Shown here piece after piece: positions 3,905 to 38,126 of a stretch of DNA of 64,000 bases. Origin of the DNA: Cyanidioschyzon merolae (Eukaryota); the NCBI GenBank assembly GCA_000091205.1, contig AP006501.2; one strand, 5' to 3'. How positions within the stretch are numbered: the stretch's first letter is position 1; each line of letters opens with the position of its first letter. A program made the translations under genes and the position numbers. The notes beneath the pieces are model-generated. The model was not told where the DNA came from, did not search any database, and saw only the letters and a list, made by a program, of their open reading frames with translations.

Positions 3905-5012
3905 TTCTCCAGTCTACAGGAGCAACCCCCATTGTTCGATATTTGCGCGATAAGCAACCAAAATCAAAAAGGGCGTGCTGATACAGCTGTTCTAGAATGG
4001 ACTGCTCTGGGCGCAACGAACTTGGTGCAGCTGCAGGGCCGACGTCCTAACATAGCCACAGCCAAATTCATGCCGCTTACAGCCCGAGGCCAAGCACGTA
4101 TCCAGAGCCAAGAGTGCACCCATGCAGGTTCCAGCAGACTAGACACGCTAGAGTCATCAGCGCCCTATCCGGGGGGTTTAGTCTAAAAGCGATACGAGCA
4201 CGACATGGCGCCGCAGCGCTGGAGCCCGAGTTCAGTTCTCCACATAACCGTTCCAAAACAAAGTTTCACACCTCGCGCTCCGCGATCAAGGAGCCCCTAA
4301 ACCAGCGAAGTATGTTCCATGATACCGCGGCCTATATGCAGTTCACCATTTGCCTGCGGCACCGGGCCGGAAACACACTCTTAGCTTGTCCATGCAAGCC
4401 AGCAGACGACCATGTTGTGAGAACGTTCCGGGGCCAAGACCAATGCGAGTGCGACTAGTCCCATTCCCCCGGATACGCTTCGAGTGTCGACGCGCCTCGG
4501 TTACCTAGCCTCTGGATCGTGCACCTATCCACGTTTGCAGCTTTCAATGCTTTCGTCAGTATGCTGTAACCAGTCCGGTCTAGGCGCCTTTTTCATGACA
4601 GACTTGTCGGGAAGAAGTGAACTGTCGAAGTCCCATATACAAACTGTGAAACAGACGTTCAAGCGCAGAGAAGTTACGTGCACCCTGCAAACATCAAAAC
4701 TGACCCAGAAACGATGAAGTGTTTCTCTCTCTACACATTGAAAGATTCTATCGGCGTCATTTGGCCTCAACTTTTTCGCGAACACTCGAGCCTGCTATTC
4801 CATTCACGCGAGATCTCATATCATTAACCGACACGTTGCAGCGCCTAAAGTTGTGCCAGCACGCCTCACCTGCCTCAATACTGACCACGCTCGCAATATA
4901 CCTATAGGAACAGGCTGCAGTCATACCCAATACGTCGCGCCTTGGCGCTAGTTTGTTTCCGCGCACGCTTTTCATGGTATAGAATCAGTGCAATGAACCA
5001 GTATCTACGACG

Positions 5013-8531: not shown

Positions 8532-9886
8532 ATGCGCTACACCGGATTCAGATAAACATGGAACATTGACCCATCCGCTATGTTCCTTTTCATATGATTT
8601 TTTCTGAGCGATCTTAGATGCACCATTGGCATTCGAGGTGCAGCAGTAGGTGCGTACGGATTCATACGTGGTTTCGGGGCTCCAGCTTGTCTATTCAGTG
8701 TGCCGCTATCGACTAGTTGGTGCTGGAATTTTTTAGTGCGCTGGAATCAAAACATTACGTGTTGCTATCGAATACGGGATCGCAACAGAATACATGTCAC
8801 TGACCAAATCGTATGTACAAGCGTCCGCTCTCCTCCTTTGCTACCGTTTCGTATGCTTCAGTCACACAATCTTCGTGTTTTCCATCTTTCCGTATCACAG
8901 AGGCTCGTGAGTGCGGCTACTCGTACCGCCAGATTGACGCGGATAATACCTCGACAACGCCCCGTAGCGGCCGCTTTGTAAGCGCATCCCCAACAGTCAC
9001 TGAACCTGTCACGTCAAATGATCCTGATCGATTGAACGGCAAATCCGTCTGCCTTCGTGGGCATCGACGGAACTGCATTCACGCTCAGCTTGATCCATCT
9101 CACCGGGCTATGCTGGCAGGGTCTCCCGTCTCTCCTGCTAGAATGTGAGAGCATCGTCGACTAGGGCTTGGGTTAGCGCAGCGATCGCTTCCGGGGCGGC
9201 GAGCGCCTCACCGCTTCTGACCGAGTCAGCGTCGACGCATCGAGAATGCTCGACATCGTGCACCGACCTGGACTTTGCTGCAGATACCTCTATTATCCTG
9301 GATACGATCGCGTTCCGCATACGCTCTATCGAACGGAGCAGCGTGCGCTTTCGAGTGCAGCGGACAGCGTACTTGCCAAGCGTCCGCTCAGGAGTGGAAA
9401 CAGCGGCGGGTTCCATGTCGAACCTCGTTTACTGCGAATAGCACGAACACGGGCAAAGCGTGTAGGCATCACGCGCGATAGGGCGACGCTCGGATGACGA
9501 GGGTGTTTGGCGAACACACGGGAACGACTACCGTTATCCAAGCGTCGCTGCTGCAGCGCACGAATCTATTCTGTATACGAGCAAGATGAGCGCGACGAGG
9601 GAAGCGAAGCTCGTAACGTCCGCCTGGACGTGACCTGCATTGAGCACAGCCAAAAGCAACGAGACCGACACATGAGCGCTGCACTCCATGTCCTTCGACG
9701 AAGGAGAACGCTGCTGGCGTGAGAGGAAACGGAGGCGTATGGAAACACGGAGAGAAGCGAAAGGACCGAGAGGCAGTCGCACCAGAAACCGTAAGGGCTG
9801 GTCTTGACGACGCCCGAGAACACACTTAAACTTTAGCTCGCATACCCGCATAAGAGGTGCATTTTCATACTACGCTGACATGGATG
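8532..9886. repeat. Direct repeat copy 1 (about 1.35 kb); partner at 28117-29451
   Basis: Homology starts at 'cagataaacatggaacattgaccc' (8532 / 28117) and ends at 'gcattttcatactacgct' (9886 / 29451). Embedded ORFs 8700-8981 and 28276-28557 differ at 2 of 93 residues, so the copies are about 98% identical. Confidence 0.85.
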
Positions 9887-12042: not shown

Positions 12043-13326
12043 CTATGAAGCCGTTGGGCTCGACACGGGATCTTCGCTGGCGATGTCCTCGGCCTCGTCC
12101 TCGGAGTCTATTTCATCCGTCGCTGGCCAGATGCTCGGAGGCATATGCTTCATCTGGACAGAGGGAGCACCTTCTAGTTGGCGCAATTGTTCGATAACTT
12201 TGCTCTTCACCTTCTCTAGATAATCTCTCGAATTCTGGTTCTCCAGTTCACGCATTGGTTGAATATGGAGAGAATATTCTGGAGCGAAGTATTCCCAGTA
12301 ATCATTGTATGGAATCTGGGCGTCTACCGATATGCCTAGAAGCACCGAGGTCTCAAAGAGCCAGCAGCGGGCAACGTTTCGGATGTTGTAGCCACCACCG
12401 CCGAGGACCAGCATCGGGATTCGGAACGAACGAACAAAAGCCACCGCATTCGCATGTCCCTGTACCGTCAAGTTAAAGCACCCGAGTCGATCATGGGCCA
12501 GAGAATCCGCGCCACACTGCATCACGATTGCACCCGGTTGATATACTTCGATGACCTTGGTTATTATCGGCTCGAAAATGCGACTGAAACCTGCATCATC
12601 CATGCCGTCTTTCAGGGGCACGTTCACCGCGTATCCTTCACCGCGCCCGTAGCCGCGGTCCCATACATCTCCGGTTCCCGGGAAAAAGTTGTCTCCGTAT
12701 TTGTGGAAGGACACCGTGAGCACTCGATCTGTGGTGTAGAAGGCTTCTTCGACACCATCACCATGATGCACATCAATATCGATGTAGAGCACACGCGGGT
12801 AGAGACGCAGCAGTTCGAGAATTGCCAGTACGATATCGTTCACATAGCAGAAACCGCTCGCTTCACTTTTCTTGGCATGATGAAGACCACCTGCCCAGTT
12901 AATCGCAATATCACTGGTACCCGACATGAGTTTTCTGGCACCGTCGATACTACCGCCGGCAGATACGGCGCAAAAGTCCCAAAGACCGTCAAACAGCGGA
13001 CAGTCGCCGTGTTGTCGTCCGACGTTAAACCGCTGTAGCTGGTCCAAAACGTCGTCGGTTATGGTGTCCGGGGTTGTGTTTCGCAGGAACTCTATATAGT
13101 CGTGGGCGTGGAACTTTTCGCACTCCTCAGGGCTCGCTTTACGAGGCTTGTAGACGTCCATATGGCGATAGAGACCGTACGCGAGACATAGGTTGTGCGT
13201 GATGGCCATTCGGTGCGGTTTCATGGGATGATGCTGTCCATAATAGTAGCCCCCAACATCAAAGTCCATAAAATAGGCCACGCGCAAACGGTCGGTGGAA
13301 CCATACAGAGCCTGGCTCGACAGCAT
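12043..13326 (-). CDS. Class I histone deacetylase (RPD3/HDAC1-like), 427 aa, intronless
   Basis: ATG (plus-strand 'cat' at 13324-13326) verified. Classic HDAC catalytic motifs are present: [44 protein letters not shown], and an acidic C-tail. Confidence 0.9.
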
Positions 13327-13459
13327 GAGTCCAGTGAAGATCGAGACGTTCGCTAGAGCACCGAAAACAAGCGAGGAACCTGAAGCGTCCGGGTGGCTTT
13401 GTATGCACGGATGCTCGAAGCCTAGCTAGCGCACAACTTGGCTGAGGATGCGCACCCCT

Positions 13460-16005
13460 GGAAACAAACGTCTTTCAAAAGAAAAACGTTGCTGCCAGTG
13501 GTACAGTAGTGGCGGCAACCGCACCCTAGCCAAGAAGTCTCCAACTGATGTGCAGACGCCTTCCAGCTTTTTTCGACTGGCCACCCACTACTGCTTCCAA
13601 CTTTTTCCCATATAATTCCACATTCAGAGATGGTTCCATAAAGTTTTCTCTTGTCAGCTCTGGGGGTCTATTCTCCATCAACGCATATTTCCTTATATTG
13701 CTGGCAGCATTAAAGTCTCGGTTCATAAACTCCATACGTTTCGTGCCGTTGGGAGTTGTACTCACTAATGCAAGTAGTCCACGAACTTTCGCGCTCCTTT
13801 CCATTTGCTCTTCCGTCAGCGTACCGTACTTTCTTATAACCTCAGGACTCCGCTGGCACTTTTCCATCTCGACCCTCTGAAGTGTACACCCTAGCTCATG
13901 GTGTGTATAGGACGTTCGAAACTCATCTACAGGTATCGTGACGATACTCCGTGCACACTCTTTGTACGTTCTTGTCGTTGGAGCTGGCGTAGTTCCTTGC
14001 TTGGGTCTTCCGTCACCCTGCTCCGTACGCTACTACGAGTCTCTGACTTTCATCCTCCTTCAAGGCGCTCAGCAGATTGAAAAAGTTCGCGAATGCACGC
14101 TGCTTCCCACAATACAAATTCATTCGCAGTCGAACCCACCGGGGCTTGGTCTACTCTTTCCACAGCGCATACCAGTGAGCAATACGAAGTTCCATGAATT
14201 TCCGAAGAGCCTGAATGTCCGCTCGTCGGCTCGTCACCTCGCTCATAGCTTCCAGATGCTCTTTCATTCTTTCATTCCATGCAGCAATTTTCTTCCTCGC
14301 ATTCATTATACCGGATTCTCGATAGTATCTCGCTCTCGAGAACCTCAAAAGACGCATGTATTTCTGACGTAAGTTACCATCAGTACCATCTTCCGCACGC
14401 TGGGGTACTGCGATGGTTATGTTATTTGTGTTTCCGGGATCCGCGCTGACGACAAAGTCGTTATCTTGCACCTCCTGCGTCGCAGGATCCGCCTCCTTCT
14501 CATCTTCATGCATCGTCGCGCCTGCATCCTTCGTCTCGGGCGCAGCCGAGGGAGGGACTGGACGATCTGTCTTCAACCGCCGATAGTGTATACACAAGGC
14601 TACTCCATCGGTTTCGATCATCTCAGTGAATACCTTTTGTTTGCTGACTTTGAGACGTTTGAAATCGAAGATATTCTTCCAGTATGTCTGCCGGTTTTCA
14701 CCGGAGAATTCCTTCCTGCTAACATCGAAATCAGGACTGATCTCGCTCGTGATGCTGCAAAGACGCCAGAGTCGATAGTCACAAAATGTGACTTGATATT
14801 GTACATTGGAACCACGTTGAAGCGCTTCCCCATTAGGAACGCCTTCCGTCTCTCCCACTCTTCATTTTTTCCTCATTCAGCCTCATCTCTGCCGTGCGTT
14901 CGAGTTCGCGGTCCAAAAACACGAAATACCTCAAGATGAGGAGGTAGTATCTTTCCTTATCTTTTCCAACTCTGATATCTTGTCTGCTGGATTAACCAGC
15001 CCCAGTACCGCACGGTGCTCTTGTATAACCGCACGGATTACAGAAGCTTCATTCGTGCACTAATTCGACGCCTTCTTGTCAACGAACTCGATCTCATCTT
15101 CATGATGGCGATCGTTCGTGATGCAATTGATAATCGCCCATTTTCCTTCGCGAGACAGACCCGGGTGGAGTGCAACCACGGCGCGTATCATGAAACGTTC
15201 GAAGTTCGCTGTCAAATGGTTCTTCAGATTCGTGAGGTACTTCATGGCCCCGTAGCTGTAAATATCCCAGTCACCCTTGTACCGAGTACCCTCGAAGCTG
15301 TAGAAGGAATGTTTTTCGTGGAGGGCATGCACTAGCACATTTTCCCTCCGCGCTTTCTCTGTACCAAGCATCAGGTGAGGAATAAAGGTCTTGTCGAAGA
15401 ACTCGCCCGGAATCTCGACCTTTTCCATGTGCGTCCCGTCGCGATACATCTCTCTCACCAAATGCATCAGTCCTGACGACGCCTTGACAATATTCTTCGA
15501 GTACGACGCAACACGTTTTTCGATAGCTTCTCGCAACTTTTCCCTGTACGGATCCTTGATCTGTCCAAGAAGAAAGGTTTTCACCACCATCTCGTCGCAC
15601 AGTTGTCTTTCTTGCCGCTTTCGACGTAGGGCCTCCCCCGTTTTTGCGTTTTCTTCTTATCCTGCTCTTCTGGAATCGGCACTGTTTTTTGTTTTTTTTC
15701 TGGCACCCGGCGACACTGGGCCTCCAGGATCGTAGACTTGCTTTTTCATAGCTTTCCTTTTTTAGTTTTTTTTGAGAAAGAACGCTCTTTGAACTCTTCT
15801 GTTATATACTGCGAAAAAAACACTTGATTAGACTTGTTCGAAGTTTGAAACACAATTGAAATGAAAAACTGTACTTGGCTATGAAGTTAACGAAAATACA
15901 ACTTTTACATTAGATCTACATGCTAGAGATCAGGATCACGTTCCCCTTCAACAACGGCATGTGCGTAGCGTCTCATGCCTGCCTGATCTCCGAGGTGCAC
16001 TCACC
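13460..16005. repeat. Left arm of the large inverted repeat (about 2.55 kb); partner at 20268-22870
   Basis: The reverse complement of the left arm aligns with the right arm. The ORF trios 15060-15590 / 14151-14858 / 13526-13867 (-) and 20696-21226 / 21428-22192 / 22476-22658 (+) are near-identical. The inner boundary matches at 'atcgcgctcggtgagtgcacctcggagatcaggcaggcatgaga'. The outer ends are diverged but still alignable to about 13460 and 22870. Confidence 0.85.
13526..15590 (-). CDS. TnpB/Fanzor-like RuvC nuclease (OMEGA-type RNA-guided endonuclease candidate), left copy, in three ORF blocks: 15590-15060 (helical N-terminal part), 14858-14151 (RuvC-I region), 13867-13526 (RuvC-III region). 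The gaps are introns or shared frameshifts.
   Basis: ATG at 15590 verified ([19 protein letters not shown]...). Block 2 carries the RuvC-I-like ...[19 protein letters not shown], with the Asp codon at 14439-14441. Block 3 carries the diagnostic RuvC-III ...[19 protein letters not shown], with the Asp codon at 13715-13717 (D-x-NAA-x-NI as in TnpB, Fanzor and Cas12). Block 2 starts at GTG, so it is not an independent gene. The frame upstream of block 3 stays open ([22 protein letters not shown]...), suggesting a +1 frameshift or intron junction near 14013-14029. Confidence 0.6.
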
Positions 16006-16599
16006 GAGCGCGATGCAAACTAGTCACAAATTATTTATTAAAGAACAACTATCTTAAAAGCCCCATACAGCACGCGCGCCTATGGGGTCTAGTTTTTCCG
16101 AAGAAGCTCTGAAAGTGGGTTAAACCGGGGTGCTTGGGCGACGACGAAGGAAGCCCACGCCAGGGACCATGACCGCAACGAACGGAGGGGCGGAGGCAGT
16201 GGCAGCAGAAAATATTGACGAGAGTTCTGAGTAGTTATCCGCTGCTCCCGAAACAACGCTGCAGGTTCCGGCGCAAATCCTGGATCCATCCTCGAACTCG
16301 GGCTACGTTTTACCTCCCACCTTGAGCACCTACCTCAACTTTGGAAACACTCTCGGCGGATACTTCGGAAGGCGGCTATCGATATGCTCGTGGTCGAAGC
16401 TGGAATAAGCGACTTACCCGCCTATGTGTTTGGGGAACGGATACGTAACCGCTGAACGGGTGCTTTGCAGACTGTTCCCAATGGTTGAGGGTAGCTTCAC
16501 GCGTCCGGCAAGATAAAGTTCGCATTCGAATCGACCTTGACTAATGTACTTCTGATTCTACGCTAGCGCTGCGGCAGACACTCAATGAACGACTGGAAT

Positions 16600-19500
16600 G
16601 CAGGAGGCGCTGGTGGCATGTGCTCTCACACACCTTGTGGAGGGTGCATCTAAATGGACGACGCATCTCTCGAGTACCGCAGCGTTACTCCTATACCCTT
16701 ATGCGCTACGACTCGATAGGTTTCGCATCATGGAATATTTGCGGTGTGGCCTCGATACTAGACGACGAGATATCGAATTACCAGTACAGTAATGAAGAAC
16801 TGATACAAGTCGAGGACTGTACAATAGGAAAAGAGACCCAACCAGACACGGAGAAGGAGACACAGAAACCTCATGATCCACCTAGATGCAAAATAACCAG
16901 AGAAAGTAGCTCAGGAAAGAGCCCGAAGAAGAAAAAGACCAGCAAGAAATAAACAGAAGAATAGAAAAAAGAACTCCCAAATGAGCCCATCACAAGGTAT
17001 CCCCCGAGAGGGCACCCCAGCTGGAACTCAAGAAAGCCGTCGCCAAACCCAGGCACCTACTCACAGCGCTGAAGATCCGAAAAGCCGTGCATACAAATTT
17101 TTTGACCAATTGACACGCGAGTTTGTAGATGGGAATCAGAAGATTGCCAGAGAGCTGGGACTGCTTGCACCAGAACGCAACAGTTGCAAACCTCGGTACC
17201 TGAAACGACGTACCAAAACTCGGATTGATGAATGCTACCGAGTCTATAAGATCGTCAACCGCACCGCCATACACGCCAACGCCGGAGACAAAGAAGCGAA
17301 GGCAGCGCTACCGGCGCTACAGGCGCAACATGAAGAAGCTATCAAAAGAAAGAAGAAACTTTCCAGAGAAGACAAACGAGAGGATCGAAACCGCAGAATC
17401 GCCTCCCTGGCGAAATCTATGCTGGAGAGCACCAACGAAGATGAGATCTGGCGCTACATTCGATCGAGACTCGACCCACCAAAAAAGTGCTTGGGGCTCA
17501 CACCAACTCTGTATAAGGAAGAGCTGAGGACGGAGCGTGCCTCAGTGAATGAGGCCTGGACAGACCACTGGACAGAGCTGCATGAAGAAGCAACTGGACA
17601 CTGCTAAGACCCAATCTATTGGCACCAATATGCTGCAGAACTACCGCGCCTCGACCCGGTACCGGAATGGAACGACCCAATCTTCTGGCCTGAATCTGTC
17701 CGGACTCTGCTATGCTCAAGCAACCGCAAAACACCTGGCTTTGACGGTATCCCTACGGAGTGGATGAAACTGGTGATCCCAAAAGACGGGACAACAGGGA
17801 CACCATCGATACCAGATGAACCTGACAGAATCTTAGGCAAGCGCCTTCTGGAGCTCATCCAACGCATGTTCGAAGAAGCGTACATCCCAGATGTATGGAG
17901 GACTGCCGAGGTCGTATCGATCCTCAAAAAGGACTCCGAACCCCACAGACATGAATATCTACCGGACTATGCGCCTCATCCCGTCAATCATGAAGCTACT
18001 TTGCGCCAACCTCACGAACCGGACTCAGAGGGGCCTTGAGGAACGCAACTTCCTCGCCCCAGAGCAGGCTGGATTCCGGAGCCGCGAGGAGTGCATGAGC
18101 CATGACCTGACCTTCATTGAAGTGGTGCAACGTCGCTCCATTAGCTGCCAACAACCAACTTACGTATGCTTCATCGACTTTCAAAAGGCCTTTGACACGG
18201 TCCCGCACGAGGCTCCATTTCTGAAGATGGAACGTGCCAGAGTCTCCGGAAAGTGCTTAGCGTTCTTCCGTGCGCTCTATGCAGACTCGTGGATGTGCAC
18301 CCGACTGGGCGACTGCTCAAGAACCCCTTCGATAAGAATCCGCCGTGGACTGCGACAGGGCGACCGCGCATCCCCGCGCCTTTTCAACATCTTCATCAAC
18401 GATCTGCTGAACAACTGCAGACAATACGGGCTTCAGGTGTCGTGGATAGACTGTGGAGAACCCGGTGAGGAGCGCCTACATAGAAACCGCCTCGCAGGCC
18501 TTCTACTTGCGGACGATGTCGTGCTGTTGGCACCCGCCCCGGAAACGCTTGCGGCTAGCATGCAACAAGTCAGCGCCTGGGCCGATCGCTGGGTTATGAA
18601 CATAGGAGCATCGAAGTGCGGCGCCATGGTCATCCTTGGAGACTCGCAGCGCATTCGCAATCGCTCGTGGCGGTTGCAGAATCAGGAAATTCCGATCGTG
18701 GAAAAATATCGCTACCTGGGGGTCTGTCTCACGCCGACGCTCGACGAAAAGGCACAAGTCGACGAGATGATCGCCAAGATGCATAGACGTACAGAGATCG
18801 CACGTCCATTCTTATCCGACCCCTCTATCTGCATAGCAATCCGTACGAGGGCACTAAGGATGTGTATCATCCAGCCTTCGACCTGGGGTGCTGAATGGTG
18901 CGGCATGAAGCACACAAATGCCTCGCGTCTGCATACAGCCGCCAACAGGGCAATGCGACTCGTTGGTGTTGGATGCTCAGTGCAGCGCAGAGCGACCAAC
19001 CCGCTGGCACTCGGACTTGAACTCCAAATAGCCTCGATAGAAGCGATAGCAGCAGGCTGCCGGGCATGTATACGGGCCAAAGGGCCCACTATGCGCACCT
19101 CCTTGAGTCGGATTTTCATGCAGACCCCAACGCACCGCTAGAACACTTGGATGAAATCAGCGCAGATTTGGCTGAAGCGCCTCTTACGCGAAAACACGCT
19201 ACCCAATCGTTCCCCAGGAATGTAGAAGACTTCAGACGCCTCAAGCGAACGGTCCAAACAACAATATGGGAAGGTAGACACGGTACCAGTCGCGCTAGTA
19301 ACGCCGGCTTGACTCTATATCGGAACTACAACCTAGCATACACATGCAAGTACTGGTGGGAGGCGCTGGAATTCCCGGGACTTGCTCGCGGTACCCTGTG
19401 GCTTGCCAAAATCCGTGTTAGTGGCATCTGGCTACCAGCACCGGCTCTAAGCCGTACGGGAACACTGGAACCGCACTGGGAGTCACACTGTCCCTGCTAT

Positions 19501-19700
19501 CGAGACGAAATCCCCGAGACGCTGACATATTTAAGCTTACAGTGCCCGCGCTCGAAGCAGGAGCGCAGCGAGCTCCTTGAAGGACAGCAGGAGCTCGGCA
19601 TCACCGTGATAGTCGAAGGCCGGACACTCACTCTGAGTGTAGCACTGGCAACTGATGGTCCGCTAACGGAGCCTCAGCGCTCATGAGTGGCGAAGAAACT
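16600..19700 (+). mobile_element. Degenerate non-LTR (LINE-like) retrotransposon remnant at the centre of the palindrome
   Basis: RT motifs are split across frames. IPDVWRTAEVVSILKKDSEP (in ORF 17764-18039) is followed, after a frameshift, by YRTMRLIPSIMKLL...FIDFQKAFDTVPHE...RGLRQGDRASPRLFNIFINDL...LLADDVVLLA (in ORF 17891-19141). The C-terminal ORF 19066-19686 carries a Cys/His motif, HCPCYRDEIPETLTYLSLQCP. The upstream ORF 16981-17607 is K/R/E-rich. No APE endonuclease domain or poly(A) tail is seen. Confidence 0.7.
17764..19141 (+). pseudogene. Reverse transcriptase (non-LTR type), frameshifted
   Basis: RT domains 0-7 are recognisable but distributed over two overlapping frames, with the frameshift near 17900-18040. 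Confidence 0.7.
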
Positions 19701-20267
19701 CACATGCTACCTTCTAGGCAGCAGGTCCAACGAATCGGATGAGCACACGGGTTTAGTGCTCTTTGTGCCTACCCACTGTGGTGGGTGTCAAGCACAAACC
19801 CGCATTGCCAACCGACAACACATTCAATGCATGATCACGAAGGAAAGAGGCGGCTCGCACGATATATCCTAACAGCCAAGTTTCTCCAGCGTGTCGTGCA
19901 GCGAAGACAAGCCTGCATCCGCAGACTGTCCGAGCACAAACTGACGACGAGACCCGATTCTACTTCGGTTGAACCACGCCTCGAGCCGACGCGCTCTGGG
20001 GTATAGAAAAGCTGCTCTAGCTCGATGAACTATCTGCTCCAGCATTTAAGGTCCAAAGGCGGATACGGAAAGGCAGGTACTAGGCACACACGATAGGACG
20101 TATGAAACGACCAGAGTATCCGAGGTGAAGTATAGGTACTGTAGCTTGGAGGCAGGCTGTTTGATGGATACCTAACCGCGCACTGAAAAAAATAACATAA
20201 AAAAGTAAGAAAAGAAAAAGCGCACAATTGGAAAATGCTGGCACAAGTAAACGTCTTGTCCATGAAA

Positions 20268-22870
20268 AAAAGAATCGCGCTCGGTGAGTGCACCTCGGAG
20301 ATCAGGCAGGCATGAGACAAGACGCGCGTGCCGTTTTTGAAGGGAAACGCGATCCTGATCAGTAGCGTGTTGTTCTGCTGTAAAAGTCGGATTCCCGTTC
20401 AGATCATAGCAAAGTATAGTTTTCATTTCAATTGTGTTTCAAACTTCGAACAAGTCTAATCAAGTGTTTTTTTCGCAGTATATAACAGAAGAGTTCAAAG
20501 AGCGTTCTTTCTCAAAAAAACTAAAAAAGGAAAGCTATGAAAAAGCAAGTCTACGATCCTGGAGGCCCAGTGTCGCCGACTGCCAGAAAAAAAACAAAAA
20601 ACAGTGCCGATTCCAGAAGAGCAGGATAAGAAGAAAACGCAAAAACGGGGGAGGCCCTACGTCGAAAGCGGCAAGAAAGACAACTGTGCGACGAGATGGT
20701 GGTGAAAACCTTTCTTCTTGGACAGATCAAGGATCCGTACAGGGAAAAGTTGCGAGAAGCTATCGAAAAACGTGTTGCGTCGTACTCGAAGAATATTGTC
20801 AAGGCGTCGTCAGGACTGATGCATTTGGTGAGAGAGATGTATCGCGACGGGACGCACATGGAAAAGGTCGAGATTCCGGGCGAGTTCTTCGACAAGACCT
20901 TTATTCCTCACCTGATGCTTGGTACAGAGAAAGCGCGGAGGGAAAATGTGCTAGTGCATGCCCTCCACGAAAAACATTCCTTCTACAGCTTCGAGGGTAC
21001 TCGGTACAAGGGTGACTGGGATATTTACAGCTATGGGGCGATGAAGTACCTCGCGAACCTGAAGAACCATTTGACAGCGAACTTCGAACGTTTCATGATA
21101 CGCACCGTGGTTGCACTCTACCCGGGTCTGTCTCGCGAAGGAAAATGGGCGATTATCAATTGCATCACGAACGATCGCCATCATGAAGATGAGATCGAGT
21201 TCGTTGACAAGAAGGCGTCGAATTAGTGCACGAATGAAGCTTCTGTAATCCGTGCGGTTATACAAGAGCACCGTGCGGTACTGGGGCTGGTTAATCCAGC
21301 AGACAAGATATCAGAGTTGGAAAAGATAAGGAAAGATACTACCTCCTCATCTTGAGGTATTTCGTGTTTTTGGACCGCGAACTCGAACGCACGGCAGAGA
21401 TGAGGCTGAATGAGGAAAAAATGAAGAGTGGGAGAGACGGAAGGCGTTCCTAATGGGGAAGCGCTTCAACGTGGTTCCAATGTACAATATCAAGTCACAT
21501 TTTGTGACTATCGACTCTGGCGTCTTTGCAGCATCACGAGCGAGATCAGTCCTGATTTCGATGTTAGCAGGAAGGAATTCTCCGGTGAAAACCGGCAGAC
21601 ATACTGGAAGAATATCTTCGATTTCAAACGTCTCAAAGTCAGCAAACAAAAGGTATTCACTGAGATGATCGAAACCGATGGAGTAGCCTTGTGTATACAC
21701 TATCGGCGGTTGAAGACAGATCGTCCAGTCCCTCCCTCGGCTGCGCCCGAGACGAAGGATGCAGATGAGCAGAAGGCGGATCCTGAGACGCAGGAGGTGC
21801 AAGATAACGACCTTGTCGTTGGCGCGACGATGCATGAAGATGAGAAGGAGGCGGATCCTGCGACGCAGGAGGTGCAAGATAACGACTTTGTCGTCAGCGC
21901 GGATCCCGGAAACACAAATAACATAACCATCGCAGTACCCCAGCGTGCGGAAGATGGTACTGATGGTAACTTACGTCAGAAATACATGCGTCTTTTGAGG
22001 TTCTCGAGAGCGAGATACTATCGAGAATCCGGTATAATGAATGCGAGGAAGAAAATTGCTGCATGGAATGAAAGAATGAAAGAGCATCTGGAAGCTATGA
22101 GCGAGGTGACGAGCCGACGAGCGGACATTCAGGCTCTTCGGAAATTCATGGAACTTCGTATTGCTCACTGGTATGCGCTGTGGAAAGAGTAGACCAAGCC
22201 CCGGTGGGTTCGACTGCGAATGAATTTGTATTGTGGGAAGCAGCGTGCATTCGCGAACTTTTTCAATCTGCTGAGCGCCTTGAAGGAGGATGAAAGTCAG
22301 AGACTCGTAGTAGCGTACGGAGCAGGGTGACGGAAGACCCAAGCAAGGAACTACGCCAGCTCCAACGACAAGAACGTACAAAGAGTGTGCACGGAGTATC
22401 GTCACGATACCTGTAGATGAGTTTCGAACGTCCTATACACACCATGAGCTAGGGTGTACACTTCAGAGGGTCGAGATGGAAAAGTGCCAGCGGAGTCCTG
22501 AGGTTATAAGAAAGTACGGTACGCTGACGGAAGAGCAAATGGAAAGGAGCGCGAAAGTTCGTGGACTACTTGCATTAGTGAGTACAACTCCCAACGGCAC
22601 GAAACGTATGGAGTTTATGAACCGAGATTTTAATGCCCCTATCAATATAAGGAAATGAGCGGTGCTGGAGGAAAGACCCCCAGAGTAGACAATAGAAAAC
22701 CTTTTTGGACAACCTCTCAAAGTCGAACTATATGAGATAAAGTTGGAACCAGTATTAGGTGGCCGATCCAAAAAGGCTGGAAGGCGTCTGCACATCAGCT
22801 GGAGGCGTTTCGTCTAGGGCGCGTTCGCCGGCACGACTGTACACGGCCGCCGGCTGTGCGTCACGTGGAG
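20268..22870. repeat. Right arm of the large inverted repeat
   Basis: See the left arm. Relative to the left arm, the right arm carries a 57-bp in-frame tandem duplication at about 21761-21900 and indels after the RuvC-III motif. Confidence 0.85.
20696..22658 (+). CDS. TnpB/Fanzor-like RuvC nuclease, right copy, in blocks 20696-21226, 21428-22192 and 22476-22658; the C-terminus is frameshifted relative to the left copy
   Basis: ATG at 20696 verified. Block 1 differs from the left copy at 3 of 176 residues. RuvC-I Asp codon is at 21902-21904 (SADPGNTNN). RuvC-III Asp codon is at 22626-22628 ([11 protein letters not shown]). The ORF stops right after the motif, whereas the left copy continues about 50 aa; the equivalent residues ([12 protein letters not shown]) appear in another frame at about 22770-22810. 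Confidence 0.55.
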
Positions 22871-22953
22871 CCGCGAGCGGCGGGCTTCTACCAAGTGCCG
22901 CTTGTACCAAACGCACTTGCACCTCGTGTGGACACAGACGCATACCTGAGTGC

Positions 22954-25875
22954 ATGGCCGATTCTGGAGATGAAACGGAGTGGGAACTTGCTGCCGAGAA
23001 GTTTGTAGCGACTGTTGCACCGAAAGAAACTACTCCGTCTCGGGGGAGGCCCTCGAGTCGGGCGACGCGCTCGCCGTTGCGCGAGGCTCCGCCCGAGGCC
23101 GCGCCCAACGCGGGAGCCGGCACTGCAGGCCGACCTGGACGCAGTGCGGGCAGCTCGGGGCCCTCGGAACCCACCGCAGACACCACCACAGGCACCACAC
23201 GCGTCGCTCGAGGTGCCCAACCGAAACCTGCAGGCAAGCCGAGCGGCGTGGGTGGAAACAGAGGGAGCGACGTGGCTGCGGCCCCGTCTCAGGTTATTCA
23301 GGTTTTGCGTTTCAGCAGTGATGCGTCGCTCACAGCAACCGTTCGGGGGAGTCAAGCAAACCAGCAGGCGCTCTGGGATCGGGCGCGATCGGCGTTCGAG
23401 TCGGCGCTGCGTCGGAACGCAACACGACTGGAGCTCGATGCGCTGGCAGCGGCCCTGCAGACTGTAGGCGTCGACATCTCTCTTGGTCGAAACGCAGGCA
23501 CACGCGGCGGCGGACCTGCAACGAACGGGCCCACTGACGGCAGCGGTGGACGGCGTTCGGGAGCCGCTGCGGGCGGCACGGCGTCGCGAACTCCGCAGCC
23601 AGCGCTCACGCGAGGCCGCAACGCCTGGACCCCCTCGTTTCTGACCAAAACTGCGGATACGTCCGCTACAGAGGGGGAGAATCTGGTCAATTCCTCTCGA
23701 CGAAAAGCAAAAGCTATACTGAACAAACTCGTACCGGAGAAGTTCGTCACGCTAGCGCAGCAGATTCTTGATATGCCGCTCCATCATTACGACGTACTGG
23801 AAGCGGTGATTTCAGAAATCTTTGATAAAGCGCTTGCGGAGCCGTATTTTTGTGGAGTCTACGCAGATCTGTGTGAAGTTTTGAACCGCGCGCTTCCGAG
23901 CATCGCGATCGAGAGTGCTTCGGGGACCAAACAAACCAACTTTCGCAAAATGCTTCTCGCGCGCTGCCAAGCTGAGTTTGTGCAGCGCGCCCTAGCCTCG
24001 GAAGAGCGCGCAACAGACGAGCAGGAACTTGAGGTTTGCGCCCACAACCGACGCCGCACGCTAGGAAATACAATTTTCGTGGGTGAGCTCTTCAAGCGGC
24101 ATCTGCTGAGCGAAAAAATCATTCATGAGTGTGTACAGATGCTGCTGAAAGAGGGCGAGAACGAAGATAGCATCGAAACGCTTGCCAAGTTGCTCTCCGT
24201 CGCCGGCAGCAGCATGGATCGCCCTGAGGCTCGGTCCTACATGGACGCCTACTTTACCAAGATCGAAGAAATGGCAAACAACGCACAAATTCGAGCTCGT
24301 TATCGGTTTATGCTCAAGGATTGCGTTGAGCTGCGTAAGCAGAAATGGAAGCCGCGACGAGCCCAAGAACGGCCAGCGACACTGGATGAGATTCACGGGA
24401 AAAAGTCCGGCCGTGCCGCTCGGCAAGCGAGTCAGTCGCTGGCACGCAAAGCTGCTCAGCTGCGCTTCACGGGAGCTGATGCAGAGGCGCCCAAGCCGGA
24501 GGCGGAATCCACAGTTCCAGCAGGGCAAGTGTCCGCGTCTGCCACTGTCCAGGGTCGTGTTGAGAACGCCCGTAACCAGAACGTTGCCGGCGAGACGGTC
24601 ACGGACGCTGCACACGCCAAGTCGGAGTCGGGACCGGTCCCCGATCGGACTGTCGTTTGGACCGAAAACCCTGAACTATTGCGGACGTATATTCGTGGTA
24701 TCATTGAAGACTACGTGGTGAATCCGTATCCGGCAGAGGTACAGGTGGCGCTCACCGAGTCCGGACTTGCCGCACAGCCTGACCTGCTGGCTTTGGCTGG
24801 CGTTCAGGAACTCTTCTCCATGGTCTGCAGTGCGCGCGGGCATGAACGGCAGCCGCTTGTTCGATCCTTTGGAGATGCCTTCCAGCATGTACTTTCTAGG
24901 GAGAAGCTGCTCGAGGCTCTTGTATCGATTACGTCCAATTTGCTTACCTTCGAAGACGAGCTTGATATGCCTACAGCAGGCAAAGTTCTCGGCGAGTTTC
25001 TCGGGACGTTATGCACTAGCCACTGCGCTACGTTCTTACACGACGCTGCTGATATTCATACAGTACTGGCAGCGGTTCCGCCTAATAGACAGGCATCCGT
25101 GCTGCGTTCCTTCTTGGAAACGCTCTTCCGACAGTATCCTTCAGATATGCGAGAGCGCTTCGGCGCTTCCCTGCGAGCACTACGTCCGCTTTTCGTGTCG
25201 CTCCCGCAAACGGAACAGCGCGAACTCGAAGAGCTACTTGCAAAATATGAACTGCTTGAGCTCGTTCCCGAATGGCAGCTCCGACGCCAGCTCCAATACT
25301 ATCTGGAACCTGGAAAGGAGCGTATCGCAGATGCAGCAGACTGGTTGCGAAGCTTCCTGCCCAGAGTGCGGGAAACGCTACGCTCCGAGGACGCAACAGC
25401 ATCCACTGCAAAGTCCAGTCTGAACGAATGGTACGCCTTTTGTCGATTCACTGCGGACCATATCCTATCAACTTATGTCATGGAAGCGCAATCGAGTAGT
25501 ACGATGGATATCATGCGGCGACTACGCCTGATGGTGCCGCTTCTTCGTGAAACAGCCGGAAACATGCCCGCGACCGATGAAACCGACGACGACGACGACG
25601 ACAGTGACCCCGCGGAAGACAAGGAGTGGCGTCAAGCCCAAGTGGCTTTTGCAGTGCAAGCAGGTTGTTATCGTTTGGACTTTCCCACTGATCTCATAAG
25701 CGGCATGTTCCAGGTGCTGTACGACGCGGATGTGATCTCAGAGGAGGCATTCGATCGCTGGCGGGAAGATGTACACGATACGACACCAGGAAAGCTCAAG
25801 GCGCTATTTCATGTGAATGCTTTTCTGAATTGGCTCAAGGAGACTGATGAAGAACCGGAGAAATCCGATGTGTAA
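22954..25875 (+). CDS. eIF4G-like translation initiation factor (MIF4G domain plus C-terminal W2 domain)
   Basis: MIF4G core: KAKAILNKLVPEKFVTLAQQILDMP...VISEIFDKALAEPYFCGVYADLCEVL...TIFVGELFKRHLL. W2-like C-terminus: FQVLYDADVISEEAFDRWRED. The track start 22759 is a GTG inside the inverted-repeat/Fanzor tail. The first ATG, at 22954, is used here, and the true start may lie further downstream. Confidence 0.75.
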   Translation: MADSGDETEWELAAEKFVATVAPKETTPSRGRPSSRATRSPLREAPPEAAPNAGAGTAGRPGRSAGSSGPSEPTADTTTGTTRVARGAQPKPAGKPSGVGGNRGSDVAAAPSQVIQVLRFSSDASLTATVRGSQANQQALWDRARSAFESALRRNATRLELDALAAALQTVGVDISLGRNAGTRGGGPATNGPTDGSGGRRSGAAAGGTASRTPQPALTRGRNAWTPSFLTKTADTSATEGENLVNSSRRKAKAILNKLVPEKFVTLAQQILDMPLHHYDVLEAVISEIFDKALAEPYFCGVYADLCEVLNRALPSIAIESASGTKQTNFRKMLLARCQAEFVQRALASEERATDEQELEVCAHNRRRTLGNTIFVGELFKRHLLSEKIIHECVQMLLKEGENEDSIETLAKLLSVAGSSMDRPEARSYMDAYFTKIEEMANNAQIRARYRFMLKDCVELRKQKWKPRRAQERPATLDEIHGKKSGRAARQASQSLARKAAQLRFTGADAEAPKPEAESTVPAGQVSASATVQGRVENARNQNVAGETVTDAAHAKSESGPVPDRTVVWTENPELLRTYIRGIIEDYVVNPYPAEVQVALTESGLAAQPDLLALAGVQELFSMVCSARGHERQPLVRSFGDAFQHVLSREKLLEALVSITSNLLTFEDELDMPTAGKVLGEFLGTLCTSHCATFLHDAADIHTVLAAVPPNRQASVLRSFLETLFRQYPSDMRERFGASLRALRPLFVSLPQTEQRELEELLAKYELLELVPEWQLRRQLQYYLEPGKERIADAADWLRSFLPRVRETLRSEDATASTAKSSLNEWYAFCRFTADHILSTYVMEAQSSSTMDIMRRLRLMVPLLRETAGNMPATDETDDDDDDSDPAEDKEWRQAQVAFAVQAGCYRLDFPTDLISGMFQVLYDADVISEEAFDRWREDVHDTTPGKLKALFHVNAFLNWLKETDEEPEKSDV

Positions 25876-28116: not shown

Positions 28117-29451
28117 GTTTAGCTCAGATAAACATGGAACATTGACCCATCCGCTATGTTCCTTTTCATATGATTTTTTCTGAGCGATCTTAGATGCACC
28201 ATTGGCATTCGAGGTGCAGCAGTAGGTGCGTACGGATTCATACGTGGTTTCGGGGCTCCAGCTTGTCTATTCAGTGTGCCGCTATCGACTAGTTGGTGCT
28301 GGAATTTTTTAGTGCGCTGGAATCAAAACATTACGTGTTGCTATCGAATACGGGATCGCAACAGAATACATGTCACTGACCAAATCGTATGTACAAGCGT
28401 CCGCTCTCCTCCTTTGCTACCGTTTCGTATGCTTCAGTCACGCAATCTTCGTGTTTTCCATTTTTCCGTATCACAGAGGCTCGTGAGTGCGGCTACTCGT
28501 ACCGCCAGATTGACGCGGATAATACCTCGACAACGCCCCGTAGCGGCCGCTTTGTAAGCGCATCCCCAACAGTCACTGAACCTGTCACGTCAAATGATCC
28601 TGATCGATTGAACGGCAAATCCGTCTGCCTTCGTGGGCATCGACGGAACTGCATTCACGCTCAGCTTGATCCATCTCACCGGGCTATGCTGGCAGGGTCT
28701 CCCGTCTCTCCTGCTAGAATGTGAGAGCATCGTCGACTAGGGCTTGGGTTAGCGCAGCGATCGCTTCCGGGGCGGCGAGCGCCTCACCGCTTCTGACCGA
28801 GTCAGCGTCGACGGATCGAGAATGCTCGACATTGTGCACCGACCTGGACTTTGCTGCAGATACCTCTATTATCCTGGATACGATCGCGTTCCGCATACGC
28901 TCTATCGAACGGAGCAGCGTGCGCTTTCGAGTGCAGCGGACAGCGTACTTGCCAAGCGTCCGCTCAGGAGTGGAAACAGCGGCGGGTTCCATGTCGAACC
29001 TCGTTTACTGCGAATAGCACGTACACGGGCAAAGCGTGTAGGCATCACGCGCGATAGGGCGACGCTCGGATGACGAGGGTGTTTGGCGAACACACGGGAA
29101 CGACTACCGTTATCCAAGCGTCGCTGCTGCAGCGCACGAATCTATTCTGTATATGAGCAAGATGAGCGCGACGAGGGAAGCGAAGCTCGTAACGTCCGCC
29201 TGTACGTGACCTGCAGTGAGCACAGCCAAAAGCAACGAGACCGACACATGAGCGCTGCACTCCATGTCCTTCGACGAAGGAGAACGCGGCTGGCGTGAGA
29301 GGAAACGGAGGCATATGGAAACACGGAGAGAAGCGAAAGGACCGAGAGGCAGTCGCACCAGAAACCGTAAGGGCTGGTCTTGACGACGCCCGAGAACACA
29401 CTTAAACTTTAGCTCGCATACCCGCATAAGAGGTGCATTTTCATACTACGC
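28117..29451. repeat. Direct repeat copy 2
   Basis: Near-identical to 8532-9886. Confidence 0.85.
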
Positions 29452-29904
29452 TAAAACGGGACTACTCATGCGCATACGGAGGTACAGATGTCGTGCACCG
29501 ATAGCGTTCCAAGCGCATCCACTTCGGAGTATCGATTCCCGAACCGCTCTCTTCAGTCTATATATGGTGACGCCTCATCGCCCTTGTGCCCTTCTTACCG
29601 TGTACGAAAGTAACTCGGGCCGCACGAAACACGTCATCAAAGTAGTGCTGCCTGCGGCGGCTGGCCCTCGAGCCTCCACTGTCACGCGGAACGTTTTCGT
29701 TGCGACGTCGACGGCGAGGACGCGCTTGGGGTCGCTTTGACGAGAGGCACTCACGTTTACGTCACTGGACCAGTAAAGGCGCTGGTTTCACGCGAAAGTT
29801 ACCAGTTCATCTTTCGCGACACGTCTGACGTTGTTTGTGAAGAACGCCCTGTCGAGGCCGTCAACAACGAAAACGCCCCTGTGTCCCATGCAGTTGTTAC
29901 CCAA

Positions 29905-35358: not shown

Positions 35359-38126
35359 GTGCGAAACGATAGATCAATGGAATTCGTTGTCCATGAAAAG
35401 TACGCTGTCGTGCGTGCGGGGTATACGGCGGCGCTGGAGCGTCGTATGATGCGACACGGTCAACTCGATAGGCAGCATCATTGGGCCGCTTCTCTGGCCG
35501 CTTTACGGAAGCTTTGCTCATGACGCATCGTTTTCGTATGAATGGTGAAAGGAATATGCGGTTATTTCCTTACGATGACGACTCGAGATTTTCAATGAGT
35601 CCACAATCGTGCATGAAAGAATGTCATGTTGGTGCTGGAATGGAGGCTATGACCGGTGCTGTCGGCGTATCGCGGGTTGATAGACTTGGGAATCCGCAAG
35701 AACACCACCGCTGCTGCACAGGGATATTCAGAATGAATGAGATGTAGATGATGGAGGATGTGCTTGTCTCCATGCAGTCATGCATGCGAATTTCATGCGT
35801 GACATGGGAAACAAGGCACGCTTTACTCGGCACGCTCCTGATACCAAGCACATATTTCAGCGCCTCTTCTGGGATACACTGCATGATGAGGACTTGAACC
35901 TTGAGGGATTCCCTTTACCAGCTCGCAGTGAGTCTACATGCAGTTTCGTAGAGCAATCGAATCCGAAACATGACCCAGGGGCGTCTCCCACGTACCTGGA
36001 ATGCCCACGCCCCTGTATCCCATGCTCCATACCAAATTCAGTGTTCTTTCGTGAGCGCGTGCCTGAGACCCGATTATTCTGGTGAAACACGCGCGTTCTC
36101 AAGGGCATTGCACGGTCCATTGACCTTCGAACAATGCTGTCTGGGTCGAGCGACACACGCAGTCTCTAGTGGGGTACGATCTTCACTGCCACCCGAGTGT
36201 TATCCGAACAACGCGTTGGCATCCTCTCGTGCTTATAGTCTTGTGACTCAGTTTCGTTTCGACTCCGCTGCGGCGTACAGCAGGAGACCGAAAGCACGAT
36301 ACCATGTACTGTATAGATTTTAGAAGCATTGCCTGTAGGATATATTGTTTACAAAGCAGCAGAAGGAAGACTGCATTTTCGCTTCAGACAAGTCATACCA
36401 TACTACTCCGATGGTTGAGTAACACTGAAAGAGACATGTAGATGCGTTCCGAGCCAAAAACCGATATTCTCAAGGAATGGTTGCGGTCAATAGTAGAAAG
36501 CGACCCATCGATTACCTTACGTAAACCAAAAGCGACAGCAGTAGCCGCAAGGGGCGTCACTGTTTCTCACCAGCTTATTCTTGCGGTCCTGAAAACACCG
36601 GTATGCGGTCGCAAAAAAACAGCCTTGCTTCACGCATAGTCATCTCGCACCGATATCGAAGCTACGACAGCGTTTCTGGAAAGTCACAATCGGTATGAAG
36701 CACAAGGACGTCGGCTTGTCCTTTTCCAGCCGATGCGACGTCATTCGGACGAAACGGTCGGAGCGTAGAGGGGTATTCGGCGAGCAGGGACTCAGTAGTA
36801 CGTCCGTCCGAACTCGAAGAGAACTGGGATATCAGCATTTGTTCTAGCTGCAGTGGATGCATTTGGCGGCCTCGGTTTGGCTCGAAGATACAGAAACGGA
36901 AGTCGGGGATCCTCGCAAGCTCGGTGCCGCCTGGTGCTGGAGAAAGACGAAAAATCCTCTTCTTCCCGATCATTTAGCGAAGAAGAGCAAGTAACGAAGA
37001 AGAAACAGATGAGGGGAGATGATCGAGAAGAGGTTTTCGCTCGAAAGGACGGTAACGAGACCTTCATGGCACAGCGGGCGTGAATTCAAGGAATCTTGGC
37101 GTTAATGAGTTCAACCAGAGCCAATCAACGCAGCCATCAACATAAGACGATGTCTGGTGCTGCAGACAAGACCCACAGAGCTGACGAGAGCCAGTTTCGT
37201 GTGACAGCCTATCAGCCACGAAAGCTTCTAGGACAAACTAAAACCGATGGCAGACGGTCAGTTAAAAAATGGCTGGGAGGCGTCTGCGAGTGGATAGGTA
37301 TATTTCCCGTCCATGATCATAGGACATTTTGTGATTCTCTGATCGCATATCTTGACAGAGTAGTGCAATAGTCGGCTGGAGTGAGGCGGCTCCTTTTCGC
37401 TCGAGAACCTGCTATGTGCCGGGAGCCGGTTACACTTCAATGATGTAGACACATGCAGCCTGGTACGTTGGGCTGCTTTCTCGAGCCGCGAAATACCCAG
37501 GCACGTTCTGCTGCTTTCGAGCACTGGCGGCAGCGCGGAGAAGCAATCGACATCGCGAAACTGCATTGCGTAGCGGGCCCGAGATGCAAACTGGTCATCT
37601 TCATGGACGACGCTTGTGCGCGATCGGCTCGTCTTGGCATCGAGTCCGTTTACGGCAGACGCTCTTCCGCAGATTTCTGGTCTGGCCTTCATGGCGGGCG
37701 CGCGGTCAAGCCAGTGCTCTGCTTTCGTCTATCAGTGATGCTGCATGAGGCCTGAACGCAGTCACGATTTCGACGGAACTATTTTAATCGCTCAGATGGA
37801 GTCGTGTTCCACATCTCAACCGGGCAGTACATTTGCTTCATCTTGTCAGGTTTGAAACCAGATCACCAACGCGTCTGGTGAAACAGGTCACTAGAGCGTT
37901 CCCCAGCTGTCCCGGATGCAGGCTTGGCGCCACGTGAAAAGCATCCAGCACCAAAGGCTCTGCGATGAGCGGCAAGCACCTGATGATTGCGCATGTGGCT
38001 CGTGATTCCCATAGATACCGATCTGAGGCGTTCGTTGCCCCGCCGGTACGATGCCAGTCGTCAGTGCCGACCATCACATCTCCATGTACCTCGTTGGGGT
38101 CAGGATTCGCAATCTTTGGGATATGC

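Follow-up and report, generated by a model that had tools for sequence, protein, structure and literature searches.

The window, a 64,000-nt stretch of Cyanidioschyzon merolae 10D (contig AP006501.2, one strand), carries the same interrupted Fanzor-like reading frame on two arms in inverted orientation (13501-16014, minus strand; 20274-22842, plus strand). A repeat search of the window paired 14489-15772 with 20514-21797 (98%) and 13501-14522 with 21821-22842 (96%), together with two inner extensions, and pairwise alignment of the left and right arms gave 97% identity overall. The HDAC protein of a neighboring gene is identical to BAM82711.1 of C. merolae 10D, a strain whose genome is reported to be 100% complete (PMC1955436). 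The features of the locus are as follows.

13466-16014, minus strand: left-arm copy of the Fanzor1 repeat (CMe-1A type); arm-arm homology stops at 13501, and homology to other family copies runs to about 13466.
13468-13489, minus strand: conserved 3'-terminal hairpin of the Fanzor element, ACGTTTTTC-TTTT-GAAAGACGT variant, in the left arm only.
15060-15590, minus strand: left block 1 (176 aa), ending at the same TAG as the right one (here 15062-15060).
16015-20273, plus strand: degenerate non-LTR-type reverse-transcriptase (RT) element, exactly spanning the interval between the two Fanzor 5' ends.
17891-19141, plus strand: RVT_1 ORF of this central element (Pfam E 2.7e-22).
20274-22852, plus strand: right-arm copy of the Fanzor1 repeat, with a 3' end that lacks the terminal hairpin.
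20442-22627, plus strand: inverted-repeat core, putatively homogenized, with about 99.6% identity to 13716-15846 and all seven common lesions.
20696-21226, plus strand: right block 1, a 176-aa N-terminal ORF from ATG 20696 to a nonsense TAG at 21224-21226.
21764-21820, plus strand: in-frame 57-nt acidic-linker repeat unit, in the right arm only (left-arm junction between 14522 and 14523).

The label Fanzor-like, given in the preliminary description, was borne out by profile and fold matches to Fanzor1. Pfam returned sub-threshold matches only, both for the three blocks and for intact homologues (Cas12f1-like_TNB, E 0.0083-0.23, under the cut-off), and the family was therefore assigned by a profile search of the PDB and a fold search. 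A profile of 8 family members matched PpFz1 (E 3.9e-15), GtFz1 (2.4e-9) and SpuFz1 (2.5e-9), with nothing else in the PDB below E 0.2. P0001, a 752-aa metagenomic homologue encoded by a single ORF (L005:6001-8259; 66% protein identity, 95% coverage), was modeled with AlphaFold2 at an overall pLDDT of 69.9. The seven best Foldseek matches of this model in the PDB were all Fanzor1 proteins (SpuFz, PpFz and GtFz; E 2.6e-13 to 2.2e-11, probability 1.00), and Cas12 proteins followed only at E above 1e-3. The RuvC D-E-D triad is present in the conceptual translation, in which NRDFNAA(S/I)NIRK and other motifs align with DPGR, DEFRTS and NRD of PpFz1; in the window the three RuvC motifs are divided between two frames, downstream of several stops. 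The 3' 230 nt of the element, where an omega RNA would be encoded, are conserved and end in a hairpin, of which there are two variants, each self-complementary (z about -3). With 45 aligned 3' ends (230 nt), a region that is also coding and in which the hairpin variants are out of register, RNAalifold gave no consensus structure, and an Rfam scan of 13000-23500 gave no match.

P0001 was used as the intact reference; it comes from an uncultured relative and has only about 83% DNA identity to the window copies. The majority of family members are broken themselves, and the intact state of the family is based on the P0001 cluster (five 752-aa members) and the partial ORFs P0002-P0006. Nucleotide alignment to P0001 located seven lesions common to both arms: three nonsense mutations (TAG, TAG and TGA), three 1-nt deletions and one 1-nt insertion. 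These are listed below by right-arm position, with codon numbers of P0001, followed by two stops found in the right arm only.

21224-21226 (left 15062-15060), plus strand: nonsense TAG, codon 207; GTG or GAG in homologues.
Between 21319 and 21320 (left, between 14966 and 14967), plus strand: 1-nt deletion, codon 239.
Between 21418 and 21419 (left, between 14867 and 14868), plus strand: 1-nt deletion in an A-run, codon 272.
Between 21523 and 21524 (left, between 14762 and 14763), plus strand: 1-nt deletion, codon 307.
22190-22192 (left 14151-14153), plus strand: nonsense TAG for TAT, codon 580, absent from the preliminary description.
22328-22330 (left 14013-14015), plus strand: nonsense TGA for CGA, codon 626.
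22344 (left 13999), plus strand: 1-nt insertion, codon 631, which shifts the RuvC-II/III part to the +1 frame.
22656-22658 and 22686-22688, plus strand: right-arm-only stops, TGA for TGT and TAG for TCG, in the non-homogenized outer segment.

The left arm thus totals seven lesions and the right arm nine. The proposal that both copies share the same interruptions holds for the seven common lesions but not for the whole of the arms, which are not structurally identical throughout because the two 3'-end stops occur only on the right. Compared with P0001, the acidic linker is also shorter by 150 nt (two units) in both arms. As read from the DNA, nothing longer than the 176-aa N-terminal fragment is translatable, and a RuvC-domain product would be impossible from this locus.

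Orthologous copies differ in which of these lesions they carry. All seven are present in L002 and L006 (99% identity), L003 (97%) lacks the TGA, and L004 (93%) has none of the seven and its own frameshifts instead. L087, an orthologue of the right arm, has four of the common lesions and is without TAG-580 and TGA-626, keeping TAT and CGA at these codons. TAG-207, the codon-307 deletion, TAG-580 and TGA-626 were found in none of more than 70 paralogues. Judged by these comparisons, the lesions are private to the locus and polymorphic among orthologous copies of related strains.

The identity between the arms is not uniform. Right and left arms are about 84% identical over 20274-20441 and about 80% over 22628-22842, flanking the core at 99.6%, and the edges between these segments are sharp. 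L087 is identical to 10D across the outer 215 nt and the flank and differs from it in the core. Since L087 has TAT and CGA where 10D has TAG and TGA, at least two of the common lesions probably passed from one arm to the other by gene conversion, although the L087 core could itself have been converted from another paralogue. A simpler history without gene conversion, in which a single inverted duplication followed after all seven lesions had built up in one copy, accounts for the seven common lesions and the long 100%-identical stretches, and is also favored by the finding of four common lesions in L087, the right-arm orthologue. We nevertheless regard it as unlikely, as it leaves unexplained why identity falls to 80-84% only at the arm ends with sharp transitions, why the 3' terminus of the right arm differs (no hairpin), and why L087 has TAT and CGA despite its identity to 10D in the outer segment and flank. 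The earlier claim that the lesions predate the duplication is therefore supported in part: the seven shared lesions agree with it, and the mosaic arms (core versus 80-84% ends) and the L087 codons do not. The identical lesions are best explained by gene conversion, and not only by one late duplication.

The preliminary description left the choice between a spliced gene and a pseudogene. For the former, removal of an intron of about 200 nt (21227-21427 / 14859-15059) and of a short intron or slip (22314-22330 / 14013-14029) would yield an active Fanzor, an account that we consider very improbable. The ORF layout on which it was built is largely correct: block 1 ends at TAG 21224 (left 15060), five in-frame stops precede a restart at GTG (21428 / 14858), and the +1 frame is open back to 22314. 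Block 2, however, does not run on to the stop after LVVAYGAG, as it contains an internal TAG at 22190-22192 / 14151-14153. A related copy, P0001, has a continuous 752-aa ORF across both proposed introns, an outcome that the preliminary description had itself named as refuting; the intron alternative is thereby refuted, and the pseudogene alternative is right. The longer of the two proved to be homologous coding sequence bearing three deletions; it aligns base for base with the P0001 ORF and with the P0002-P0006 proteins, and at about 86% identity it matches the P0001 coding sequence at the same level as the adjoining blocks (differences at 41/297 in the gap, and at 77/528 and 111/669 in the neighboring blocks). 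It also encodes conserved, structured residues: P292, D304 and L308 are encoded inside the gap and are invariant in 8 homologues with identities down to 23%, and residues 209-310 of the P0001 model, the gap-encoded part, have pLDDT values of 74-89. Three frame changes are located between the start of the 200-nt gap and a point ~95 nt into block 2, so the GTG-started text of block 2 is out of frame; the three deletions sum to -3, and block 2 therefore seems to continue the reading frame of block 1. At the proposed short intron, which at 17 nt is below spliceosomal intron size, the P0001 ORF is continuous and the window copies carry TGA-626, with the 1-nt insertion farther on, at 22344.

Splice signals were also evaluated. 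An ACTAACC branch point has been reported for every known C. merolae intron, of which there are 26-27 (PMC2483917), whereas the seven ACTAAC sites in the window all lie outside 13466-16014 and 20274-22852, so that neither arm, and neither gap, contains one. GT and AG dinucleotides do occur near the gaps, and with any of 20 GT-AG pairs the frame would be open over 20696-22189, but none of these pairs contains ACTAAC and none removes the downstream TAG or TGA; TAG 22190 and TGA 22328 would thus stay in the mRNA. Frame-restoring GT-AG pairs alone are not discriminating, and other splice signals are lacking. Chlamydomonas Fanzor1 genes with 5-10 exons (PMC3627910) provide a precedent for splicing, but the strain-to-strain variation of the lesions argues against it here. 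We infer that nothing is spliced at this locus.

Programmed recoding, in which stop read-through and ribosomal frameshifts would give the full protein, could draw on the A-runs at two frameshift sites but is scarcely credible, since a ribosome would have to read through three stops and shift frame four times, both forward and backward, the sites are unconserved (at these positions sense codons and an unshifted frame are found in orthologues and in more than 70 paralogues), and host genes of the window use standard stops. It is equally implausible that the frameshifts are sequencing or assembly errors copied into both arms: two indels do lie in homopolymer runs, but the 10D assembly is finished, the independent metagenome contigs L002 and L006 reproduce all seven common lesions, nonsense substitutions are unlike homopolymer errors, and the ORFs of neighboring genes are long and intact. 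We also rejected an alternative genetic code, because the host genes in the window are long standard ORFs.

Taken together, we conclude that the two arms are very probably defunct copies of the C. merolae Fanzor1 repeat, unspliced, with a core homogenized by gene conversion. The ancestral gene coded for a TnpB-like RuvC nuclease in one open frame of about 750 aa, without interruption, and at this locus it has gained three nonsense mutations and four single-base frameshifts. The arms probably started as separate, diverged copies placed head to head around the RT element, with gene conversion later homogenizing their central 2.2 kb and so bringing the same lesions into both. The latest conversion in the 10D lineage probably carried left-arm sequence into the right arm, its direction and the number of events being drawn from single contigs of different samples. 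The exon-like pattern in this intron-poor genome is thus ordinary pseudogene decay. It carries the caution that three 1-nt deletions summing to -3 imitate an in-frame intron; likewise, finding identical lesions in two copies is not enough to date a duplication, since they can spread from one inverted repeat to the other by gene conversion.

The RT element between the arms has an A-rich 3' end (...CATGAAAAAAAG). Its homologues in C. merolae 10D carry the annotation "retroelement, alive", and all 26 RT elements of C. merolae have been classed as non-LTR (Nozaki et al., PMC1955436). Pfam and PDB searches with the C-terminal ORF and with the ∼320 aa preceding the RT gave no match to an endonuclease domain (APE or REL), a weak negative because this copy is degenerate. 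Many isolated RT 3' fragments (170-420 nt), which are 5'-truncated copies, occur in other loci, ending at element positions 4256-4257. By a tally of the listed matches, the exact 5' or 3' terminus of an RT element adjoins a Fanzor 5' terminus at ∼12 of ∼34 distinct loci (∼1/3), and none of ∼50 Fanzor 3' ends is so joined. RT pieces of graded length, from 200 and 860 nt through at least 1.0 kb and at least 1.7 kb to the full 4.26 kb, stand in tandem before a Fanzor element. Where a contig takes in both ends of a Fanzor copy, the copy is full length in 36 cases and 5'-truncated in 15; 3' truncation was seen in none of them. No target-site duplications (TSDs) were detected around four RT-plus-Fanzor composites.

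Because of the RT adjacency, the graded RT pieces, the 5' truncation, the lack of TIRs and TSDs, the 3' hairpin and the lack of an RT-element endonuclease, we raise tentatively, as possible though doubtful, that CMe-1A may be no DNA transposon and may be copied by reverse transcription with or by the non-LTR RT element. In a bolder version, the RNA-guided nuclease would provide the DNA break for the endonuclease-less RT element. The RT linkage and LINE-like 5' truncation could bear on the mobility of TIR-less Fanzor elements, and are the sole part of the analysis with wider interest.

Compared with the structurally characterized proteins SpuFz1 (8GKH), GtFz1 (9CER) and PpFz1 (9CF0), the C. merolae family shares the whole-length fold and a profile match over DPGR, DEFRTS and NRDxNAAxNI. 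It differs in its identity of only ∼13% and in its zinc-finger cysteines: no canonical CxxC pairs were seen between RuvC-II and RuvC-III in the family sequence, which has two Cys and two His instead of an evident CxxC...CxxC. The window copies, in addition, are inactivated. Chlamydomonas CRe-1/2/3 (PMC3627910) are likewise eukaryotic Fanzor1 genes on transposable elements, but their exons are EST-supported and their host is intron-rich, whereas the C. merolae host has ∼27 introns and the gaps are coding in relatives.

The closest counterpart is CMe-1A, the Fanzor1 element family of C. merolae itself (Bao & Jurka 2013, PMC3627910), described as old, ∼80% identical to the consensus and without TIRs. 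The window arms agree with it in host, length (∼2.7-3 kb), absence of TIRs and of detectable TSDs, ∼80% likeness among copies and a single-ORF Fanzor1 protein. There is no difference in kind; that paper states that some copies are intact, which implies that most are not, and the arms are two decayed members. The head-to-head pairing around an RT element and the homogenized core, both seen here, are not in that paper. The window arms also resemble, in size class and truncated ORFs, the 3.2-kb novel interspersed repetitive element of 253 copies reported in C. merolae (Nozaki et al. 2007, PMC1955436), in which the ORF is truncated in all copies and similar to WSSV WSV486. The relationship to TnpB/Fanzor was unrecognized there; the white spot syndrome virus protein was itself listed as Fanzor1 by Bao & Jurka (PMC3627910), and CMe-1A and the 253-copy element are probably one repeat. 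As these elements are reported to be transcribed (PMC1955436), a dead copy may have a role at the RNA level. The arms are two more decayed members of an already known repeat family, described in 2007 and 2013.

The two Fanzor-like copies were delimited by repeat search and pairwise alignment as the arms of an inverted repeat, and a reverse-transcriptase (RT) element of the non-LTR type fills the space between them exactly, giving the arrangement Fanzor(inverted)-RT-Fanzor.

12043-13326, minus: 427-aa histone deacetylase (HDAC) gene, outside the left arm
13468-13489, minus: 3'-terminal hairpin, left arm only
13501-16014: left arm, gene on the minus strand
16015-20273 (4.26 kb): RT element with RVT_1 ORF; junctions 16014/16015 and 20273/20274
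20274-22842: right arm, gene on the plus strand
22954, plus: ATG of an eIF4G-like gene (MIF4G and W2), outside the right arm

The HDAC protein matches that of Cyanidioschyzon merolae 10D (BAM82711.1) at every residue. The HDAC and eIF4G-like start codons lie about 100-140 nt downstream of the ends of the left and right Fanzor relics, respectively, on the same strand (13326-13466; 22852-22954), and transcripts crossing either relic would continue into the adjoining host gene. A gap-free direct repeat of 1329 nt (8548-9876 / 28124-29452, 99.2% identity) flanks an 18-kb segment holding a DUF202 gene, the deacetylase, the Fanzor-RT-Fanzor block, the eIF4G-like gene, and further ORFs.

Of the 55 relatives retrieved with the conceptually joined protein, almost all come from metagenomes of acidic hot springs. 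P0001, the best match (752 aa, 66% identity, 95% of the query covered), belongs to a 90% cluster with five members of 752 aa. Lesions were called by nucleotide alignment of its continuous ORF against both arms; paired coordinates are right / left, and codons follow P0001.

21224-21226 / 15062-15060: TAG for GTG/GAG, codon 207, both arms
between 21319 and 21320 / 14967 and 14966: 1-nt deletion, both arms
between 21418 and 21419 / 14868 and 14867: 1-nt deletion, both arms
between 21523 and 21524 / 14763 and 14762: 1-nt deletion (codon 307), both arms
22190-22192 / 14153-14151: TAG for TAT, codon 580, both arms
22328-22330 / 14015-14013: TGA for CGA, codon 626, both arms
22344 / 13999: 1-nt insertion, both arms
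22656-22658: TGA stop, right arm only
22686-22688: TAG stop, right arm only
21748-21902; 14441-14523; L005:7146-7449: in-frame tandem repeat of 57-75 nt, acidic linker just before the RuvC-I motif

The three open blocks of the preliminary description were reproduced: in three-frame translations and the ORF list, a 176-aa ORF stops at TAG 21224-21226 / 15062-15060, five in-frame stops precede an ORF from GTG 21428 / 14858, and the C-terminal part uses the +1 frame, which in the right arm stays open from position 22314 onward. Block 2, however, is itself broken by the TAG at 22190-22192 / 14151-14153, which had been overlooked. The two copies were said to share the same interruptions; seven lesions are common, but the right arm alone has two extra stops. 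Because the three 1-nt deletions total -3, the frame of block 1 appears to "resume" about 200 nt on. The 57/75-nt acidic repeat differs in copy number, in frame, between the arms and the P0001 ORF. Its copy number also differs among arms, strains, and paralogues, and it is modeled by AlphaFold with pLDDT <30. A short piece of a further Fanzor copy survives at 37066-37201 (plus), matching P0001 residues ~696-751 in two frames.

Sequencing error was ruled out, since the lesions recur in independent assemblies. The proposal that the gaps are introns was examined against the homologues. P0001 runs uninterrupted across them in a single ORF (L005:6001-8259), and the supposed ~200-nt gap runs through all three frames, its corrected reading matching P0001-P0006 residue for residue. 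The "intron" resembles the intact ORF as closely as its flanks do (41/297 differences vs 77/528 and 111/669 in the flanking blocks). It encodes P292, D304, and L308, which are invariant among eight aligned homologues with identity down to 23%, and the matching P0001 residues 209-310 are helices in the AlphaFold2 model (pLDDT 74-89). Only ~0.5% of genes reportedly carry introns in the 10D genome, which is described as 100% complete (PMC1955436), and all 26-27 known introns carry an ACTAAC(C) branch-point motif (PMC2483917). ACTAAC is absent from both arms, its seven sites in the window all being elsewhere. Although 20 GT...AG pairs would restore an open frame over the first gap, each lacks a branch point and all would remove conserved residues. 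Splicing also could not be a full cure, as neither the TAG at 22190 nor the TGA at 22328 could be spliced out. We conclude that the intron interpretation of both interruptions is refuted.

The pseudogene alternative gained support from orthologous copies, among which the lesions vary, most being private to the locus. Left-arm orthologues on metagenome contigs adjoin the same deacetylase gene and 3' flank: L002/L006 (99% identical to the left arm) contain all seven lesions, L003 (97%) has CGA in place of TGA, and L004 (93%) has 0/7 but carries other frameshifts. The right-arm orthologue L087, adjoining an identical eIF4G-like gene, contains the three deletions and the insertion and retains TAT and CGA. 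TAG-207, the codon-307 deletion, TAG-580, and TGA-626 are all absent from the paralogues at 71 further loci of the same metagenomes, where sporadic indels of independent origin affect only the two A-run sites. With the exception of one partial copy, all matches from that search contain in-frame stops, at positions that vary from copy to copy.

Arm-versus-arm identity in 50-nt windows is ~84% over the inner 170 nt (20274-20441), ~99.6% over the core (20442-22627), and ~80% over the outer 215 nt (22628-22842), with sharp borders and random identity beyond. Differences between the arms in the core amount to nine substitutions and two indels, one of 1 nt and one of a repeat unit; the core contains all seven common lesions, and the right-arm-only stops fall in the outer segment. 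As judged from the alignment, the 84% / 99.6% / 80% mosaic is a putative gene-conversion signature between inverted repeats 4.3 kb apart. L087 and the 10D right arm agree fully over the outer segment and flank; the L087 core differs, missing two common stops. The simplest reading is probably that two old, diverged copies had their middle homogenized by gene conversion, the left arm having been the donor in the latest event, in the 10D lineage. The suggestion that the lesions predate a duplication is only partly supported: they are common to both arms, but L087 keeps TAT and CGA, and gene conversion probably carried at least two of them from one arm to the other.

Most family copies end 3' in the conserved hairpin followed by GTT (alignment A3, columns 219-243), which the left arm kept and the right arm is missing. 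Two self-complementary variants occur, CGTTCGA-CTT-TCGAACG and ACGTTTTTC-TTTT-GAAAGRCGT. The hairpin may serve as a signal for transposition or for RT recognition, or may belong to an omega RNA.

The RT element meets the left Fanzor 5' terminus with its 5' end and the right one with its A-rich 3' end. The junction falls on the identical Fanzor base at the unrelated locus L005, where a 5'-truncated, inverted piece of this RT element is joined to the Fanzor 5' terminus (L005:4401-5673). RT at this terminus (ATCGCG...) was recorded in the window and at L005, L017, L021/22, L027, L029/30, L033, L036, L044, L050/61, and L060. By our tally of metagenome loci, RT sequence lies within 100 nt of ~12 of ~34 distinct Fanzor 5' ends, in either orientation, and beside 0 of ~50 3' ends. 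Other head-to-head inverted Fanzor pairs occur at unrelated loci (L069:1449-7092, also L066; L070/L072), so palindromic arrangements are recurrent in the family; the spacer of one includes a 170-nt RT-3'UTR-like piece. An RT-3'UTR-like piece also occurs in another 5' module. Among copies with both ends within the contig (L016-L086), full-length copies number 36 and 5'-truncated copies that keep their 3' end number 15, but no copy with an intact 5' end is 3'-truncated, a LINE-like asymmetry not expected of a DNA transposon. A search around four RT-Fanzor composites found no target-site duplications, and Pfam and PDB searches found no endonuclease domain in the RT element. Together with the RT adjacency and 5' truncation, these results suggest that the family may move by reverse transcription together with the RT element.

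Pfam is near-blank on the gene (TNB, E 0.0083, under the cut-off), and canonical zinc-finger cysteines are not evident in the protein. An eight-member family profile matches the solved Fanzor1 proteins PpFz1, GtFz1, and SpuFz1 (E 3.9e-15 to 2.5e-9), with which the DPGR, DEFRTS, and NRDxNAAxNI segments align; the top seven Foldseek matches of the P0001 model in the PDB are all Fanzor1 (E ~1e-13), and the D-E-D residues are found in both arms' conceptual translation. Decayed Fanzor1 repeat copies are already known: C. merolae has one listed Fanzor1 family, CMe-1A (Bao and Jurka, PMC3627910), whose still-intact copies are without introns. We infer that both arms belong to this known, mostly dead family (Bao and Jurka's CMe-1A; Nozaki et al.).
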